NCBI GenBank assembly: GCA_050950765.1
Contig: JBMNIF010000001.1
Location: forward strand, 160,001 to 224,000
Source: Bdellovibrionota bacterium
Lineage (GTDB): Bacteria > Bdellovibrionota_C > UBA2361 > JAAYZI01
Length of the DNA: 64,000 nt
Reading direction: 5' to 3'
In this document: piece after piece, positions 2,769 to 43,011 of the stretch
How the letters are laid out: each line of letters begins with the position of its first letter
Numbering within the stretch: position 1 is the first letter of the stretch
Notes under the pieces: model-generated
Seen by the model: only the letters and a program-made list of their open reading frames with translations
Database searches by the model: none
Told to the model about the DNA's origin: nothing
Made by a program: the position numbers and the translations under genes

Positions 2769-4664
2769 ATGAGAGATAAAGAAGCGGCAAAAGAAGCTCA
2801 AGCGCCTGTAAGTCAACAGAAGCTTGATGAGTTAAAGGAAAGTTGGAAGACTTTTTCTTCTCATCCAGGTGTTTATCTGATGCGCGATAGGCATGAGAAG
2901 GTGATTTATGTCGGGAAAGCAAAGAATTTAAAAAATCGCCTAGCAAGCTATCTACGAGGTGGAGACGGCAGGCAACAGATCCCCTTTTTAATGCGTCGGG
3001 TAAATAAAATTGAAACGATAGTGACTGACAATGAGCAGCAAGCTTATGTTTTGGAACGTGATCTGATTGCTAAGTATCATCCCCGTTATAATGTAAAGCT
3101 TAAAGATGATAAATCTTTTTTGAGTATTCGGATTGATGAAAATCAAGCGTGGCCTCGATTAGAATTGGTAAGAAGAGTTGAAGGTGATGGAGCACGTTAT
3201 TTTGGTCCTTATAGCTTCTCTTATGAGTTAAGAGCGCTTCTAGAGATGATAAATAAAGCTATCCCGTTACGAAGTTGCAATAATACGATTTTTTATAATA
3301 GACAACGACCATGTCTTGAGTATCAGATAAAAAGGTGTGCGGGTCCGTGTTGTTTGGATGTTGATAGAAAACAGTATGCGTTATGGGTAAAGGAGGCCAT
3401 CGCCATTCTTGAAGGCAGGACGGCGGATTTAGAAAAGGATCTGACAAAGCAGATGGAAAAAGCGTCCGAAGATCTTCGTTTTGAAGATGCAGCTGCTATT
3501 AGAGATCGTATAGAGATAATAAAGAACTTTAAACAGGGAGGAACGTATATCTCAGCGGGTGCTGAAGATAGGGATGTTTTTGCACTTTATCGAGAGGAGC
3601 GTTTGGCTGTAATTTCCTTAATGAAAGTTAGAAACGGACGGATCTCCGATAATAATAATTATACCTTTTCTAATGTCGAGATCGCTGATGATGAAGTTTT
3701 GGAAGCGGTTATTTCGCAATATTATGATGGAGAACGTGATCTAGCGCCGGAAATAGTTTTACCGTTTGAACTTGATAATATCTCTCTTTTAAGAGAAGGC
3801 ATTGCTACTCGTTATGAGGTAGCGCCGACGTTTACTATCCCTAAGATTGGGTTAAAAAAACGTTTGTTGGGGCTAGCTGCTCTTAACGCCAGACAACATT
3901 ATATCTCTGTTTTTGATGCTGATAGCCGTTATAAAGAAGCTGCTACGGCACTTGCTAAGATCTTAAAATTGAGTCAGATCCCGAGAAGGATTGAGTGCGT
4001 CGATATCTCAAATTTACAAGCTTCTGATATCGTAGGTGGAATCGTTTCATTTTATGATGGTGTGCCTGATAAGAAAAATTACAAAAAATATATAATAACA
4101 AAACAGGACAAGCCTGATGATTTTGGTTCTATCTATGAGGTGATAACTCGTAGATTAAAACACGCTATGGAAGATGATGAAGATCAAGTTCCTGATCTGT
4201 TTTTGATTGATGGAGGACGTGGGCAGCTGGGTGCAGCCTTAGCAGCGCGTGACGATTTAGGAGTAACTTGCGAGATAGCTTCTTTAGCTAAGATTAGAGC
4301 AACGAAAGGTAAAAAGCTTAATTCAGAAGATCGCCTAAAGCCTGAAAGAATTTTTAGAGAAGGAGTAGAGGAAGCGATCCCGCTAGATCCGTCGGCGGAC
4401 TCGACCTTACTTGTGACGCGTATTAGAGATGAAGCACACCGCCACGTGATACAATTTCACCGTTCCAGACGATCTAAACGAGTTTTCTCATCTGTATTGG
4501 ATGACATTCCAGGAATAGGTTCTAAAAGAAAAACTGCTTTAATAGCTGCCTTTGGAGGTGTAAACGGGATGAAGCAAGCTTCCATAGATGAACTAATGGA
4601 GAAGGGACACTTGCCAAAAGTTTTGGCAGAAAAGCTTATGCAAAAGTTGCATAATTTGCAGTGA
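2769..4664 (+). CDS. uvrC: Excinuclease ABC subunit C
   Basis: GIY-YIG (GVYLM...YVGKAKNL), Cys-rich CLEYQIKRCAGPC, RIECVDIS, IDGGRGQL, RDEAHR, HhH tail. Confidence 0.98.
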   Translation: MRDKEAAKEAQAPVSQQKLDELKESWKTFSSHPGVYLMRDRHEKVIYVGKAKNLKNRLASYLRGGDGRQQIPFLMRRVNKIETIVTDNEQQAYVLERDLIAKYHPRYNVKLKDDKSFLSIRIDENQAWPRLELVRRVEGDGARYFGPYSFSYELRALLEMINKAIPLRSCNNTIFYNRQRPCLEYQIKRCAGPCCLDVDRKQYALWVKEAIAILEGRTADLEKDLTKQMEKASEDLRFEDAAAIRDRIEIIKNFKQGGTYISAGAEDRDVFALYREERLAVISLMKVRNGRISDNNNYTFSNVEIADDEVLEAVISQYYDGERDLAPEIVLPFELDNISLLREGIATRYEVAPTFTIPKIGLKKRLLGLAALNARQHYISVFDADSRYKEAATALAKILKLSQIPRRIECVDISNLQASDIVGGIVSFYDGVPDKKNYKKYIITKQDKPDDFGSIYEVITRRLKHAMEDDEDQVPDLFLIDGGRGQLGAALAARDDLGVTCEIASLAKIRATKGKKLNSEDRLKPERIFREGVEEAIPLDPSADSTLLVTRIRDEAHRHVIQFHRSRRSKRVFSSVLDDIPGIGSKRKTALIAAFGGVNGMKQASIDELMEKGHLPKVLAEKLMQKLHNLQ

Positions 4665-22776: not shown

Positions 22777-23967
22777 TTATGTTGTTAGTATTTTGCTATC
22801 TATTCTGTCATATAAGCTGTTTAAGTCACGTTGAAAGATCTCAAAAGTGTAACGTTCTTCGGCAAGTTCGTGTGCGGCATTCCCTATTTTATGGCGCAGA
22901 TCTGGATCTGAAATTAATTTTTTTAATCCTTGCGCATAGCTATCGGGTGTGGGATCTGTGAGGATTGAAACGGTGTTGTTTAAAACCTGTGTGTGCGTTG
23001 GAAGATTTGTCGCAATGATTGCTTTACCGGAATGTAGATATGAATATATTTTCATGGGAGTGTTGTTCCCACGTAGTCTGGGAGAAGCTAAAATGTCAGC
23101 TTGAAGGAGGTAGCTTTTTAAACGATTGACAGCTCTACGTCCTGCAAGGTGTGCTCTATCTGAAAGATTTAATGCTGAAATCTTTGTTTTCCCTGCTGAG
23201 ATATGTTCATCACTACCACCAATAATAACGAGATGTGCTTTATCAAAGGAGTGCGCAATTTTTGCAAAAGCATCAATCAAAAGACCGCAGCCCTGATAAG
23301 GTTCAAGGTTCCCGACATATAGAATAACCAAAGAATCAGGGGGGATGTTTAATTCTTCTCTAAGCGTCTGCTGTGAAGTTGTTTGAGAATTATCTAATCC
23401 AAGGAGAGATATGTCTCGTAAGATCTGAGTGTCCTGTGAACCCTGATTGTAGGCAATGGCAGCGAGAGCATCGCAAACAGGAACTACTGCCATACTGTGT
23501 TTAATGGCTCGTCCTTCAAGAAAAGAGAGTAGCGGGAGAAAAGGACGAAAAATGCGCCATTTTTCAGTTAATTGTTGTGCTATTGATGAATCCATGTCGT
23601 AGATATACGGAATTTTCCAAAATACTTTGATTAGCATTGCAATGAAAACAGATTCTTCTACGGCATGAACTAAGTCATAAGGATTTTTTCTATTTTTCCA
23701 AACTAGCTTCAAAGCAGTAAATAAAAAAATGATATCGCAAAAGAGTTTTTTAACGGAGATACCAGGGGCGATATTGTTTAGAAAAAAAGGTGCTTTGATC
23801 CGTATATGATTAACATTCGGTATGCTTATGTCAGTCCCTTCGTGATATGTTAAAAGATCGATAGAGTCTTCTTTTCTTGTGGCAAGAACTTGAACTGCTA
23901 ATCTAACAGCTATCGGAGTGCCACGGTCTTGAAAAAACGGTTGTGGTGCTAAAAATAAAATACGCAT
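22777..23967 (-). CDS. Glycosyltransferase family 4; likely start MRILFLAPQPFF at 23967
   Basis: GT-B motifs LYVGNLEPYQG, ADILASPR, PMKIYSY. The ORF-track N-terminal extension runs through repeat DNA. Confidence 0.9.
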   Translation of the reverse strand: MRILFLAPQPFFQDRGTPIAVRLAVQVLATRKEDSIDLLTYHEGTDISIPNVNHIRIKAPFFLNNIAPGISVKKLFCDIIFLFTALKLVWKNRKNPYDLVHAVEESVFIAMLIKVFWKIPYIYDMDSSIAQQLTEKWRIFRPFLPLLSFLEGRAIKHSMAVVPVCDALAAIAYNQGSQDTQILRDISLLGLDNSQTTSQQTLREELNIPPDSLVILYVGNLEPYQGCGLLIDAFAKIAHSFDKAHLVIIGGSDEHISAGKTKISALNLSDRAHLAGRRAVNRLKSYLLQADILASPRLRGNNTPMKIYSYLHSGKAIIATNLPTHTQVLNNTVSILTDPTPDSYAQGLKKLISDPDLRHKIGNAAHELAEERYTFEIFQRDLNSLYDRIDSKILTT

Positions 23968-23997
23968 AGCATGGGATGATAAAACAAAAATTGTAAA

Positions 23998-24067
23998 AAG
24001 GACACCCGACTTGTCCCTGGTGCCACCCACCAGCGCTAAGCCCTTGTCACTGGTGCCACCCACCAGT
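23998..24067. repeat. Repeat array 4: two hairpin-form cores downstream of the RAYT gene
   Basis: CTGGTG-CCACC-CACCAG at 24017-24033 and ACTGGTG-CCACC-CACCAGT at 24049-24067, preceded by GGACACCC. Confidence 0.9.
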
Positions 24068-24278
24068 ACGACCTGCTTTGCTGTTTTTGCTCTTCTGACA
24101 GCCTTTTTTCTGCTTATGCCACTGCCAGCAAGCTTAGTTCACCTTAAATTTCCTTAAATTTGATACTACAACTTACTATTAATTGACTATTTTCAGATTT
24201 TAGATAGATCTTCCCTGTTGAAATTTAGATTTCATATTATTAACGGGTCAAAAAAGCAGCTTTTTTACATTACTTTTT

Positions 24279-25247
24279 TCAGGTCGCCACCCCGCAAAGC
24301 CTACCTACAATAGGCATACTCGGACGAAATGCCCCATAAACAAACTTGGCTGAAATATCACCTTGCTTCCACTTCTTCCAAGCCTTTCTACACTCTTCAC
24401 AAAAAGCCTTATATTCTGCTATCGCCTTTATCCGTAACTCCTTAATCCAACAAATTAAATACGGCGTACGTGTCTTCTTCTTAGGTACATACGCAATATT
24501 TATCGATTGCTGCTGCACTTTACGCATCCCCATAAAATGCCCCTTCCTTTCAAGTGCAATCTCTTCTTCCCTTTTTGAAATCTCTGTCATTATTGTTTTA
24601 AAGATCTCTTCAGACGTAAGGTTTTTTGATTCTTCAAAACAATTCTTCCAAGCATCAGGGGTAATCTTAAGCTCATGACAAGTGTGCGGAAACATATTAA
24701 GCATTTTTAATAAAATAGCATCGCTTATTTTATGAAGTCTCTGCGGTAACTTACGTAAATTAGTAGAAGAGGTATACTTACCCTGCACTGTTAAAGAACC
24801 TGATTTATACATTCTAAAACTACTACACCCTTCCCAATCAGCAGCGTGTGCAACGAGTCCTGCTTTTACAGGATTTATATAAATATAGACTATCTTATCG
24901 ATAACATCATTATGAGTTACCAAACGTTGCTCCTTAAAACGTCCATCCCAAACGTTTCTCCTATATTGCGGTGTTAGTTTCTTAATAGCACGTGCAACTG
25001 CACTTTCCATCTCTCCCATAAATGCAGAGATGTGCTTTCCTTCACCAACTAATATCATGTGAAAGTGGTTACTCATCCAATTAAAATGAGCAATTCTAAC
25101 ACGATGGTGCTCTTGGCAACGTGCCATAATCCCTAACAGGATCCATTTCATAAAAAGGCGTGCTAGAAATGGCAAGCCAGATAATGTTCTATTGGTGACA
25201 TGTACCACCATTTTATTAGGATTTCTCCTATCTCTACGATTTCTCAT
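24279..25247 (-). CDS. REP-associated-type tyrosine transposase (RAYT / TnpA-REP, Y1 HUH endonuclease) with C-terminal extension
   Basis: HVTNR, MSNHFH (HUH), VWDGRF, YIYINPVKAGLV...W..SS; no tnpB beside it; flanked by short palindromic repeats. Confidence 0.88.
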   Translation of the reverse strand: MRNRRDRRNPNKMVVHVTNRTLSGLPFLARLFMKWILLGIMARCQEHHRVRIAHFNWMSNHFHMILVGEGKHISAFMGEMESAVARAIKKLTPQYRRNVWDGRFKEQRLVTHNDVIDKIVYIYINPVKAGLVAHAADWEGCSSFRMYKSGSLTVQGKYTSSTNLRKLPQRLHKISDAILLKMLNMFPHTCHELKITPDAWKNCFEESKNLTSEEIFKTIMTEISKREEEIALERKGHFMGMRKVQQQSINIAYVPKKKTRTPYLICWIKELRIKAIAEYKAFCEECRKAWKKWKQGDISAKFVYGAFRPSMPIVGRLCGVAT

Positions 25248-25396
25248 AAGACAACTCCAGAAAAAAAATAAAAATAATTAATAAATTGGCAGAATTGCCG
25301 GTTAGCTTGGCAGGATTGCCAAATTCTAACGCCTAATTGTCGCTAGAGTTGGGATTTTATTGTGGGTAAAAATGAAAAAAGTTTGGAGATTGGGAT

Positions 25397-25872
25397 TGGT
25401 GCCACCCTTTAGTGCGAGGATGGTGTTAGAAAAAGAAAAGAAGGGTGGCACCAGTTTTACCCCCGTGAAGACCTAGCTGATCCGTTTTACAGTTCCAGCC
25501 CGTCCGATTGTCCCTGAAGGGTGGCACCAGTGACAAGCCTGCAACAATTGCTGATTTAAGGGCAAAAAGAAGGGTGGCACCAGTTTTTTAACCCCCGTGA
25601 AGACCTAGCTGATCCGTTTTGCAGTCCCAGCCCGTTCAGTTGTCCCTGAAGGGTGGCACCAGTGACAAGCCTGCAATAATTGCTGATTTAAGGGCAAAAA
25701 GAAGGGTGGCACCAGTTTTTTAACCCCCGTGAAGACCTAGCTGACTCTGTTTTCAGTTACAGCCCGTTCGGTTGTCCCTGAAGGGTGGCACCAGTTTTTA
25801 CCCCCGTGAAGAGCTAGCTGATCCGTTTTGCAGTCCCAGCCCGTCCGGTCGTCCCTGAAGGGTGGCACCAGT
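25397..25872. repeat. Repeat array 5: inverted core pair followed by an A-B'-A-B'-A-A tandem array
   Basis: GGTGCCACCC at 25398, then GGGTGGCACC at 25443, 25519, 25572, 25651, 25704, 25783, 25860. Confidence 0.96.
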
Positions 25873-28545: not shown

Positions 28546-29348
28546 GTCCTAAATTCCCGTTTTTTTATAGTCTACACCTTAGTATTTAATATTTTATCGA
28601 CAAAAATCTTCTGGTCAATTTCTAATGCTTCTAAAATATCTTTTTGTTTTTTTGTTAATGGCTGTAGTAGCATGCTCAGATTTTCATTATCTATGCGTCT
28701 TATCATTTTAAGCGTTTCTAAAACTCTCTGAATGGTTTTTTCTACTTTTTTGTTATTATTATTTATAGTTCTTTGTAGGTCTGACCACATAATTAAGCTA
28801 AGAAAGGAAACGAAGCTTTTGCCGTCAGTAGTTTTTTCATTATGTGTTAGCATACGGTCATTATCCAATTCATTTTTTAAATTATCGAAAGCTTTCTCAA
28901 TAAAGTCTCGTCGTGAATAGATATGAAGTGCTTCTTGTGGTGTCATTGTTGAGTGGTTACTCAAAAAAGCAAAAACTCCTAGCATAGATAAGATATCGGT
29001 AATTTTTTCATGATCTCTTTCAAAACTTTCTAACTGCACTTCTTTCTTAGTTTTTATTTTGTAGTATTTAGAGTAGCGACTCATACTCATAGGCTTTTTC
29101 ATTTCTTTTAGTTCATCTTCTAATCTGTCAATATGAGAGTAAAGAGTGCTCTCTTCCTCAGATGCACTTTTTGTATTTAAGTAAACGTAGAGAGAAAATT
29201 TTTCTCCATTTATCACAATATCTTTTCTTACCCCATAACAATTTGTCCCAGATATGTGATTCCTAGAAGAGCGAAGAGTAACAGATACTTCCCTCATAGT
29301 GTTCTGCCTCTGATGGAAATGGACTTTTGTCATGCCACAAAACCCTAG

Positions 29349-30311
29349 TTAACACACCTGAGCTTGTTGTTCAATGTTGTAGTTAGTAAGAGAGGGGTAC
29401 CCCTCTCTTACTAACTTGCGATGTGCTCTAGCAGCTTCCAATTTGCTGTCTCGAGCTCTAAATATCTCCTCTTGCTTGTTATTCAATCTATCATTTGGTG
29501 TTATATAACCTAGCGCACAATGTAACCGCTGATTGTTATATTCTTCGACAAACTTACTCACTATAGTTTTCGCATCATCAAGTGATACTGGAGTGTTAGG
29601 TCGTATCGCTTCTACTTTTAATGTCCCATTAAATCTCTCCATCTTACCGTTCGATTGTGGATAGAACGGTGATGTCTTGACGTGAGTCATACCAGATATC
29701 TTTATAAAATTCTTAAACTCTTTTGAAATATAGGCTGAACCGTTATCTGAAATAATTCGCGGTCTTGCGTCTGGAAAACTTTCTCTAGCCTTTTGTAATA
29801 CTACTTCAATATCTATTTCTTTCATCGATTCTCTAATGTCCCATGCAACTAAATACCGACTACATCCATCCAAAACTCCAATAAAATAGTAAAATGTGCC
29901 ACAAATATTGATATATGAAACATCCGTATGCCAATGTTCATGCGGGTTAAGTGGTTGTTCAAATCCTGTCCCTTTCTTGCTTTTTAAACCATTCCAGCAA
30001 CGCATTAAGCCAGCACTTTTCAATACTCTATAGGTCGTCGCAGGGGATACTGCCACAACATCTGCGTCAAGCATCATGTATGTTAATGCTCGATAACCTA
30101 CTCTTGAGTGCTCTAAATAATACTTAATAATAGCCTCCCTTTCACTGGGTAATAGCCAGTAATCTCTCGGAATTAGCCCGTTATGAAAGTTCTCTTTACC
30201 GTAATGTTTTTCCCAAGCATAGTACTTGCTCCGTGTTATCCCTAACCTCTTTATAAACATCTCCCGCTTCATTTCTGATTTCTCTTGCCATTCATGTACA
30301 AAATCTATCAC
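29349..30311 (-). CDS. IS3 transposase OrfB
   Basis: Protein identical to 15233-16195. Confidence 0.95.
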   Translation of the reverse strand: MIDFVHEWQEKSEMKREMFIKRLGITRSKYYAWEKHYGKENFHNGLIPRDYWLLPSEREAIIKYYLEHSRVGYRALTYMMLDADVVAVSPATTYRVLKSAGLMRCWNGLKSKKGTGFEQPLNPHEHWHTDVSYINICGTFYYFIGVLDGCSRYLVAWDIRESMKEIDIEVVLQKARESFPDARPRIISDNGSAYISKEFKNFIKISGMTHVKTSPFYPQSNGKMERFNGTLKVEAIRPNTPVSLDDAKTIVSKFVEEYNNQRLHCALGYITPNDRLNNKQEEIFRARDSKLEAARAHRKLVREGYPSLTNYNIEQQAQVC

Positions 30312-42256: not shown

Positions 42257-43011
42257 TTTAGGATACCCACTTTTTACTGGGTTTTTAAGCTTTTGCTAAT
42301 GTCTTAATATTATTAACTATTGCAATTTTAGAGTTTGGATGTCCTATTTACAAAGCGTCTGCAACGCTGAAGGGTGGCACCAGATTTTTAACCCCCGTGA
42401 AGATCTAGCTGATTCGTTTTGCAGTTGCAGCCCGTTCAATCGTCACTGAAGGGTGGCACCAGAACTGCAGCCGCCAAGATCTGACAAATCTGCTTATACT
42501 GAAGGGTGGCACCAGTTTTTTAACCCCCGTGAAGATCTAGCTAATCTGTTATGCAGTTGCAGCCCGCCCGATCGTCCCAGAAGGGTGGCACCAAAACTGC
42601 CGAATTCTAACTTCTGCTAACATCTTGATATTATTAGCAGCGCTGGTGGGTGGCACCAGTGATAGCTAGCCATAAAGAAGGGTGGCACCAAAACTGCCCG
42701 ATTTTGGATTTTTGTTAACGTCTTGATATTATTAGCAGCGCTGGTGGGTGGCACCAACGACAGGCAGCTACAAAGAAGGGTGGCACCAGATCTGCCGAAT
42801 TTTAAGGTTTTGTTAATGTCTTGATATTATTAGATGTTGTAATTTTGAAGTTCGGGTGTCCTATTTGCAGCGCTGAAGGGTGGCACCAGTGATAGCTAGC
42901 TACAAAGAAGGGTGGCACCAGTTTTTTGACCTCCGTAAAGATCTAGCCGATCCGGTTTTGTAGTTGCAGCCCGTTCGGTCGTCCCCCAGATTTCTGAAGG
43001 GTGGCACCAGA
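42257..43011. repeat. Repeat array 9 (11 cores)
   Basis: GGGTGGCACC at 42372, 42451, 42504, 42583, 42648, 42680, 42746, 42778, 42878, 42910, 42999. Confidence 0.96.

Follow-up and report, generated by a model that had tools for sequence, protein, structure and literature searches.

Can a transposase build the arrays of short repeats among which its own gene lies and, if so, by what steps? The question is raised by a gene for a 322-aa Y1/HUH transposase (24279-25247, minus strand) in a window of 64000 nucleotides, the whole stretch of DNA analysed here, from a Bdellovibrionota bacterium. The original prediction described this protein with its MSNHFH motif, a long C-terminal extension and no tnpB beside it, and every part of that description is found. 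The open reading frame carries H61-x-H63, W100 and Y121-xxx-NP, with catalytic-type motifs in MSNHFH (H61, H63) and YIYINPVKAGLV (Y121), and the YxxxNP-type motif reads YIYINP. The C-terminal extension, of about 180 aa, has no family assignment. The adjoining genes are a glycosyltransferase and a GspK-like gene; a TnpB-like open reading frame is absent among the neighbours inspected at the locus. As called, the glycosyltransferase reading frame (22777-24063) begins within the repeat, and translation likely starts at the ATG of position 23967, which lies outside the outer core by about 50 nt.

What kind of transposase is this? Its Pfam Y1_Tnp score lies above the cut-off, the RAYT profile NF047646 gives 67.4 bits, under its curated cut-off of 80, and the IS200 profile NF033573 gives 17.7 bits, under a cut-off of 55. 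The predicted structure (pLDDT 94) has E. coli TnpA-REP (4ER8) as its top fold match (Foldseek E 4.8e-7), followed by IS608 and ISDra2; comparison of the model with 4ER8 (VIA Z 13.5, rmsd 2.7, 153 aligned) supports a RAYT-like fold in which the HUH...W...YxxxNP core is present. For the C-terminal part, Atlas gave no match above 0.87, and the fold-search alignment scarcely reaches the extension. The RAYT-type identity first proposed therefore stands as far as the fold is concerned and in that the protein is not an IS200 TnpA; it does not stand in the sense of a single-copy RAYT with REPs, as the gene belongs to a six-copy, TIRYT-like element with inverted ends. An IS200/IS605 TnpA was rejected on the YIYINP motif, the low IS200 score and the separate position of that group in a tree. 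A canonical single-copy RAYT (REPtron, Bertels groups 2-3) was rejected on the six copies, the RAYT score below its cut-off and the lack of inverted-doublet hairpin REPs.

A profile built from 12 relatives gave 412 representatives at E 1e-30, and 127 members were aligned. Y121 is invariant among the 127, and H61, H63, W100, N125 and P126 are nearly so; none of the 127 whole proteins matches the HTH families Bac_DnaA_C, HTH_23 or HTH_28 in Pfam at E 0.01. The HUH-to-Y spacing is 61-63, against 114 in a subclass 2.3-like gene of the same genome (158 proteins, one outlier), so that there is no 55-aa insertion. A tree of the core domain, with 59 rows, no labelled 2.1 references and two fetched loci excluded for want of a usable core, places the family in a clade of 30 rows (96/96) to which neither IS200-type TnpA nor E. 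coli RayT belongs. The three IS200-type rows form a separate clade (100/100), and the family and the 2.3-like gene group together at 88/86. The original prediction had named, as one outcome that would count against it, grouping with a multicopy IS200/IS605 TnpA that has its own ends; multicopy status and own ends do hold here, but the IS200/IS605 grouping does not. The clade lacks the features that define subclasses 2.1 and 2.3. Homologues are present in 27 of 30 related genomes, and most look-alikes in Atlas carry, on the basis of few records, a Myxococcota label.

The ends of the relatives are informative. Exact inverted repeats of at least 10 nt surround 21 of 48 distinct family loci (the window locus included), and the right arm in those 21 lies 151-324 nt past the stop codon. 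Many of the relatives' end motifs start YTGG, and several loci have tandem end copies. A right-end hairpin that includes a TGG-type arm is found in seven of the 21 inverted-repeat loci, again counting the window locus, which suggests that the hairpins at the locus mark the right-end form. Does each homologue then have an enriched motif of its own, as was predicted? Four related genomes show one, with 11 (G007), 49 (G013), 9 (G025) and 5 (G030) copies, counts that may be low because most assemblies are fragmented, and none of these four patterns occurs in the genome of the window (G000). The other part of the expectation, that motif and enzyme go together, fares less well: G025 has the same core as the window with a protein only 28% identical, and the two are thus not tightly coupled.

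How is the window locus constructed? A conserved frame of 1397 bp (24054-25450, minus strand), its layout common to six copies, lies between the putative break points of two inverted ends. The right-end core (24049-24067, plus strand; putative break between 24053 and 24054) takes a hairpin form with a 7-bp stem and a 5-nt loop. Outside it is an outer right-end core with an extra unit of 33 bp at 24021-24053 (together 24017-24053, plus strand; putative break between 24020 and 24021), whose hairpin at 24017-24033 has a 6-bp stem. These are the CTGGTG-CCACC-CACCAG hairpins described originally, and their z-scores are -2.9 and -2.1 for the right-end and outer hairpins, respectively. A non-coding 3' segment (24062-24278, minus strand) is present in all copies; it has no Rfam match and a fold z of -2.8. 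Copies of this segment truncated at the 5' side, once with the 3' end of the gene, form extra units beside three other copies of the element. At the gene's opposite flank, a non-coding leader (25248-25396, minus strand), in all six copies, is followed by an inverted pair (25397-25453; z -5.0), whose 13-bp arms at 25397-25409 and 25441-25453 are exact, as predicted, and do not extend. The pair holds an internal direct core (25397-25407, plus strand) and the left-end core (25443-25453, minus strand; putative break between 25451 and 25450). Beyond it is the regular array that had been noticed, a tandem array of six units (76, 53, 79, 53, 79 and 77 bp; 25451-25870, minus strand) with the outermost core at its end, and its units belong to two genome-wide module families. 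A scan for promoters and terminators gave nothing informative.

The genome (2.64 Mb) has six full copies of the gene and one 3' fragment. The six are 98.6-100% identical (0-14 differences in 966 nt), each inside the same 1.4-kb frame, and their variable sites comprise 15 synonymous and three replacement sites; the replacements A75, V110 and A136 (24282-25247) are private to the window copy, as neither the other five copies nor the representative in the database carries them. Beyond the shared frame, the copies differ in the number of extra units and in host DNA, the other copies having one to three left-end array units with a perfect core. The inverted pair is found at all six and at a seventh, gene-less left end, a decayed copy that retains a 37-38-nt segment and the inverted core. 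The original prediction likened the gene, which has directly oriented cores on either side (24052 and 25398), to a giant spacer. The cores are indeed so oriented, but all six copies and the decayed seventh share the 37-38-nt segment and the inverted core beyond 25398; with leader, internal core, segment and inverted core fixed in all copies, the direct core at 25398 is an internal repeat rather than a free cassette boundary. The locus is a class 2 TnpA-Y1, TIRYT/TIRtron-like element bounded by inverted TGGTGCCACCC ends.

Have these copies jumped recently? Fourteen of 28 informative site pairs among the copies are incompatible, which makes the copies mosaics that exchange sequence, and their near-identity may come from gene conversion rather than recent jumps. 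In Logan contigs from four runs, each of a different study, gene depth is 20.3, 32, 36.1 and 25.4, against about 3.4, 5.6, 4-9 and 5.2 for the flanks; taken as the rough guide that depth is, the gene stands at about five to six times its flanks in three runs and four to nine times in the fourth. The contigs of two of the four runs extend into the right end at the window locus. Two metagenome scans, a related-locus search and a paralogue search gave no empty site for the element, and a plasmid tblastn gave no match. The stretch, or a part of it, is present in 20 sequencing runs, with no RNA run listed as having it.

How far has the core spread? The 9-mer GGTGCCACC occurs 53 times in the window, where 0.16 are expected, and 986 times in the genome, in 159 clusters, the largest of 28; two other central-base variants of the 9-mer occur 15 times together. 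Core clusters occupy 2.4% of the genome, the conserved motif around the core is YTGGTGCCACCC, and cores are perfect at 826 of 1051 anchors. The expansion is confined to this one of 124 genomes of the phylum searched with this core, the highest counts among the other 123 being 37, 16, 15 and 11. A stem of at least 5 bp is formed at 215 of the 986 cores, so the hairpin is a minority form and not, as first supposed, the general one. The claim that the core differs from GTAG-type REPs and REPINs is borne out: it has no GTAG foot, it is the element's own end motif, and of the 827 adjacent core pairs within 300 bp, 804 (97%) are head-to-tail and 23 inverted. The arrays at both ends of the element point inward, as expected if arrays grew from each end. 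Genome-wide, 62 of 83 arrays lie downstream of a co-oriented gene (tandem genes, 30 versus 11, p 0.004), and a lagging-strand bias is absent (35 of 83 on the leading strand, p 0.19). Crude reading-frame calls include 91 of the 986 cores, mostly in short frames inside arrays or as isolated matches. Protein-coding repeats were rejected, since the commonest unit lengths of 79, 53 and 88 are not multiples of three.

What lies between the cores? Of the 804 spacers, 706 are distinct, yet they group in few families with little similarity outside arrays. Spacers of up to 300 bp matched only degenerate arrays or the 3' end of the element, with two later exceptions, and on these matches, from a search confined to the organism's own genome, CRISPR-like spacer capture was rejected. 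A 70-nt module family has 97 copies, 86 of them distinct, which differ by 25% when compared in pairs; by the four-gamete test, 359 of 378 site pairs are incompatible, linkage decays with distance (r2 0.14 to 0.02), and for 50 of the 97 copies the closest relative sits in a different array. Exact chimeras of neighbouring units number seven of 792, against five of 592 in a reversed control; with no excess over that control, units as copies of their neighbours were rejected. The flank of the first core is copied weakly into the second unit (18% versus 11%, all common tails), and local copying accounts for few present units. Present arrays are dominated by shuffling, probably through recombination or gene conversion, of modules that are mostly self-derived. 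One module family matches what we take to be the IHF consensus, in fixed orientation (117 forward versus four reverse). Strict matches to this consensus number 395 in the genome, and 121 of them lie in spacers (for example, window 42580-42850).

The cores also carry scars. Near 943 cores of the genome, 51 short tandem duplications end, 26 of them at +3 (after TGG), eight at +4, three at +5 and one at +2, so that 37 of 51 ends fall within two bases at TGG/TGCCACCC (the slash marks the break); at 3000 non-core YTGG sites, none of 51 duplications ends at the equivalent offset. Exact stutters ending just after TGG are found at 32 of the 943 cores, six of these being one inherited copy. A second genome, G019, has exact stutters of 9-15 nt, of different flanks and ending at the same base, at 11 of its 37 cores. 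Stutter periods in the two genomes are 6-15 nt, apart from one of 30, and no microhomology is present in 24 of 32 stutters and in 11 of 11, respectively. A contig of run X7 shows a 13-nt stutter just outside core 24019 that is absent from the present assembly. The scar is not universal, in that the generic motif in other loci gives seven stutters in 354 matches, two of them at one site. Larger duplications put together an outer tail of 9-17 nt and the core plus a long stretch of inner sequence, microhomology being 0-2 nt; they measure 73 bp in G073, 133 bp in G025 (into the gene start), 32 bp in G019, and 38, 41 and 496 bp in the window's genome, where the 496-bp duplication takes in the start of a host gene. 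That stutters stop at one base, mostly without microhomology, suggests a nick at that position, after which the host would copy the DNA. A fixed break, with little sequence on its outer side and a long and variable stretch on its inner side, fits an HUH nick, polymerase extension and rejoining.

These observations lead to the explanation that we think is probably correct: a multi-copy, TIRYT/TIRtron-like element whose enzyme breaks core ends, with host extension making the scars and arrays, all by selfish amplification. The roughly 1000 cores of the genome are copies of the element's end, as their identical sequence shows and as does the fact that each relative has a motif of its own. Most likely, the element's enzyme would break one strand at YTGG/TGCCACCC, the position being the one that the scars indicate and the enzyme the candidate agent; a host polymerase would then extend the free 3'-OH, and the ends would be rejoined. 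Extension that duplicated 6-17 nt of the outer flank alone would leave a stutter; if the core and 0-500 nt of the sequence inside it were duplicated along with the flank, a new head-to-tail unit would arise. A nick on the GGGTGGCA/CCA strand is, by our own estimate, somewhat favoured by the lack of microhomology in the stutters, which fits a 3'-OH of the element end extending into the flank. New ends would seed arrays elsewhere, where modules, whose shuffling is evident, may then pass between arrays by recombination or gene conversion. The default reading would be that the element amplifies itself selfishly and that the host tolerates this, as the arrays have intergenic positions. A bolder proposal, which we regard as doubtful, is that the clade is a distinct HUH transposon family with inverted ends whose enzyme is a site-specific strand-exchange and copying engine at an 11-nt site. 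It would carry end-anchored segments, among them host DNA as long as about 500 bp, from core to core in trans, and would build and reshuffle modular arrays, which in this lineage would have been adopted for a function in the host.

Could the units be cassettes instead? The enzyme would cut one strand at two direct cores, release a unit, or even the gene in full, as a circle of single-stranded DNA and insert it in another core, by peel-and-paste as in IS608 or in an integron-like way. Every unit has the form TGCCACCC...YTGG, as does the gene-bearing stretch of 1346 nt at 24054-25399; nearly all neighbouring pairs of cores are direct, and units travel, as the 70-nt module with its relatives in other arrays indicates. 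A free cassette, however, would not keep the segment and inverted core that all six copies retain beyond the internal core, and the shuffling inside modules is not explained by whole-unit exchange. Stutters do not arise from circles alone, and spacers are nearly all self-derived. Among the relatives' flanks examined, a reversed internal core of the element's own motif is evident only in two loci (L006 and L042). Two back-joints from 25413 to 24051 appear in contigs, with 37 other letters between, and they resemble ordinary units elsewhere; assembled contigs are blind to rare circles. We consider cassette exchange unlikely. Very unlikely, in our judgement, is growth of the arrays solely through slippage and homologous recombination in the host, in which the transposase's part would be limited to having donated the motif or to using it. 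Block duplications spanning several units are plain in the arrays, the fall of linkage with distance is in keeping with such growth, and G019 has cores where repeated searches detected no transposase homologue (assembly 92% complete, 20 contigs); several of these cores form MITE-like, gene-less inverted pairs 110-170 bp apart with AT-rich centres (L019-L028, L069-L077). Equally abundant arrays in relatives that lack the gene had been named at the outset as evidence against the enzyme: a relative with 37 cores, the clearest stutters and no detected enzyme does exist, and it counts against the favoured explanation. Slippage does not explain why duplications should stop at a single base inside the motif in two genomes, and it usually needs the microhomology that most stutters lack. 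Against slippage, too, is the finding that cores stay perfect while modules differ by a quarter.

The explanation to which we give least credence is a domesticated host system. The enzyme would maintain arrays that serve as mRNA 3' elements, as sites for nucleoid proteins or as hot spots of recombination, roles put forward for REPs/BIMEs and for Neisseria NIMEs. The position of arrays downstream of co-oriented genes, the fixed orientation of the IHF-like module and the excess of synonymous over replacement sites among the gene copies all speak for it. Yet transcription, by exposing single-stranded DNA, may account for the orientation bias; the matches to the IHF consensus all come from copies of a single module; and the expansion is seen in a single genome of the 124 searched in the phylum. 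Six copies with fragments are also unlike domesticated RAYTs, which are described as single-copy in the accessible text of PMC5581495.

A second Y1/HUH gene, single copy and of the subclass 2.3 type (NHLH, YVDLNP, long insertion), lies outside the window (C1:418239-419288). A second motif, GGACACCC, has 221 copies, several of which flank this gene, and it forms arrays of its own at C1:412900-413620; one stutter is seen, ending at the analogous point after GG. The motif is built into 119 spacers of the core arrays, and two tyrosine-transposase repeat families are thus mixed. Repeats beside this gene contrast with the accessible account of Quentin et al. (2018; PMC6006769), in which no repeats are found beside 2.3 genes. 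Other features of the genome may be recorded here. At C3:397872-398972, a 496-bp unit consists of an array end and the 5' part of a host gene, and the next block repeats the unit. A 107-bp segment that is not a module occurs three times (C3:471306-471439, C3:492145 and C1:302849), once between an inverted core pair. About 360 kb at the GC-skew switch (C2:454000-811000) are without perfect-core arrays of at least three, with degenerate modules present. In the window, an IS1634-type transposase fragment adjoins an IS3-family transposase (28572-30311), and several multi-copy IS lie beside or within core arrays elsewhere in the genome.

Why does the locus matter? It bears on the way in which HUH enzymes deal with inverted ends and on the building of repeat arrays by RAYT-type enzymes in vivo. 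The genome offers an intact, multi-copy enzyme gene, about 1000 putative substrates and a base-precise predicted break site; as this site is seen in two genomes, the model is testable by oligonucleotide cleavage. A short-site HUH nickase-ligase, if such it is, would be of practical interest.

How does the element compare with known systems? The term TIRYT was introduced in 2013, from sequence alone (PMC3733652), and within the searchable literature is otherwise used only by Quentin et al. (2018). In the accessible text of Di Nocera et al. (2013; PMC3733652), a TIRYT or TIRtron is a RAYT-like tyrosine transposase between inverted repeats unrelated to GTAG REPs; the TIR families are dispersed and 'moderately abundant', with some dimers or clusters, and a GGGGWSAS consensus is given for the majority, not all, of the TIRs of 26 published TIRYTs. 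The present element is similar in its RAYT-like gene within inverted repeats and in an end sequence that forms a dispersed family. It differs from that description in its 11-13-nt ends without the GGGGWSAS consensus, in its nearly uniform head-to-tail copies at a scale of about 1000 and in its six near-identical genes; the text, on whose descriptions this separation is based, gives no cut site for any TIRYT.

With subclass 2.1, as presented in the accessible parts of PMC6006769, the protein shares YxxxNP, NHFH and a conserved SS after the core; with subclass 2.3, it shares a length of about 325 aa and several copies per genome. Unlike subclass 2.1 (Bertels group 1), none of the 127 members has a C-terminal HTH family and, unlike subclass 2.3, there is neither the 55-aa HUH-to-W insertion nor YVDLNP. 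The copies are about 99% identical, against means of 49% and 75% in subclasses 2.1 and 2.3, and that account reports that REP-like repeats were not found beside genes of either subclass. The GGTG start of the core loosely recalls some feet in its Table S1. IS200/IS605 TnpA (IS608, ISDra2) has the Y1 HUH fold, at lower similarity, and several near-identical copies per genome; unlike that enzyme (subclass 1.1, YxxxQ, about 150 aa), the present protein lacks YxxxQ, is twice the length and is separate in the tree, and its element has inverted instead of asymmetric hairpin ends and no TnpB.

E. coli TnpA-REP/RayT (4ER8) is alike in its core fold and in arrays of a fixed motif with variable linkers (PMC3333891, PMC8266576, in their accessible parts). 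Model B of Ton-Hoang et al. (2012; PMC3333891) proposes nicking, 3'-OH extension and rejoining for BIMEs, and it resembles the scars seen here. Unlike the E. coli system, the present one lacks a GTAG foot, most of its cores are incapable of forming a hairpin, the gene is multi-copy, and the putative break is at a fixed GG/T (or A/C) inside the motif, not at a nearby C/T; the direct core doublets also differ from the inverted doublets of REPINs and BIMEs. The literature searched, in which most subscription journals lie outside coverage, gave no description of this clade or its scars. Neisseria NIMEs, in the accessible text of Bentley et al. (2007; PMC1797815), are alike in that a short fixed motif, with families of recombining 20-200-bp modules between its copies, makes up intergenic mosaics in their hundreds, but their dRS3 is a 20-bp inverted repeat, whereas the present motif has a direction, measures 11 nt and forms the end of a transposon resident in the genome. 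Replitron-1 (Craig, 2022; 10.1101/2022.12.15.520654), from what is accessible of it, is likewise Y1 HUH, with one fixed and one variable end and flank duplications of variable length; it is eukaryotic, with a Rep-class enzyme and direct terminal repeats, and the likeness is one of analogy only. In scale, in head-to-tail modular form, in its six near-identical genes and in a break site defined by scars, the present system goes beyond the descriptions accessible to us of those already known.
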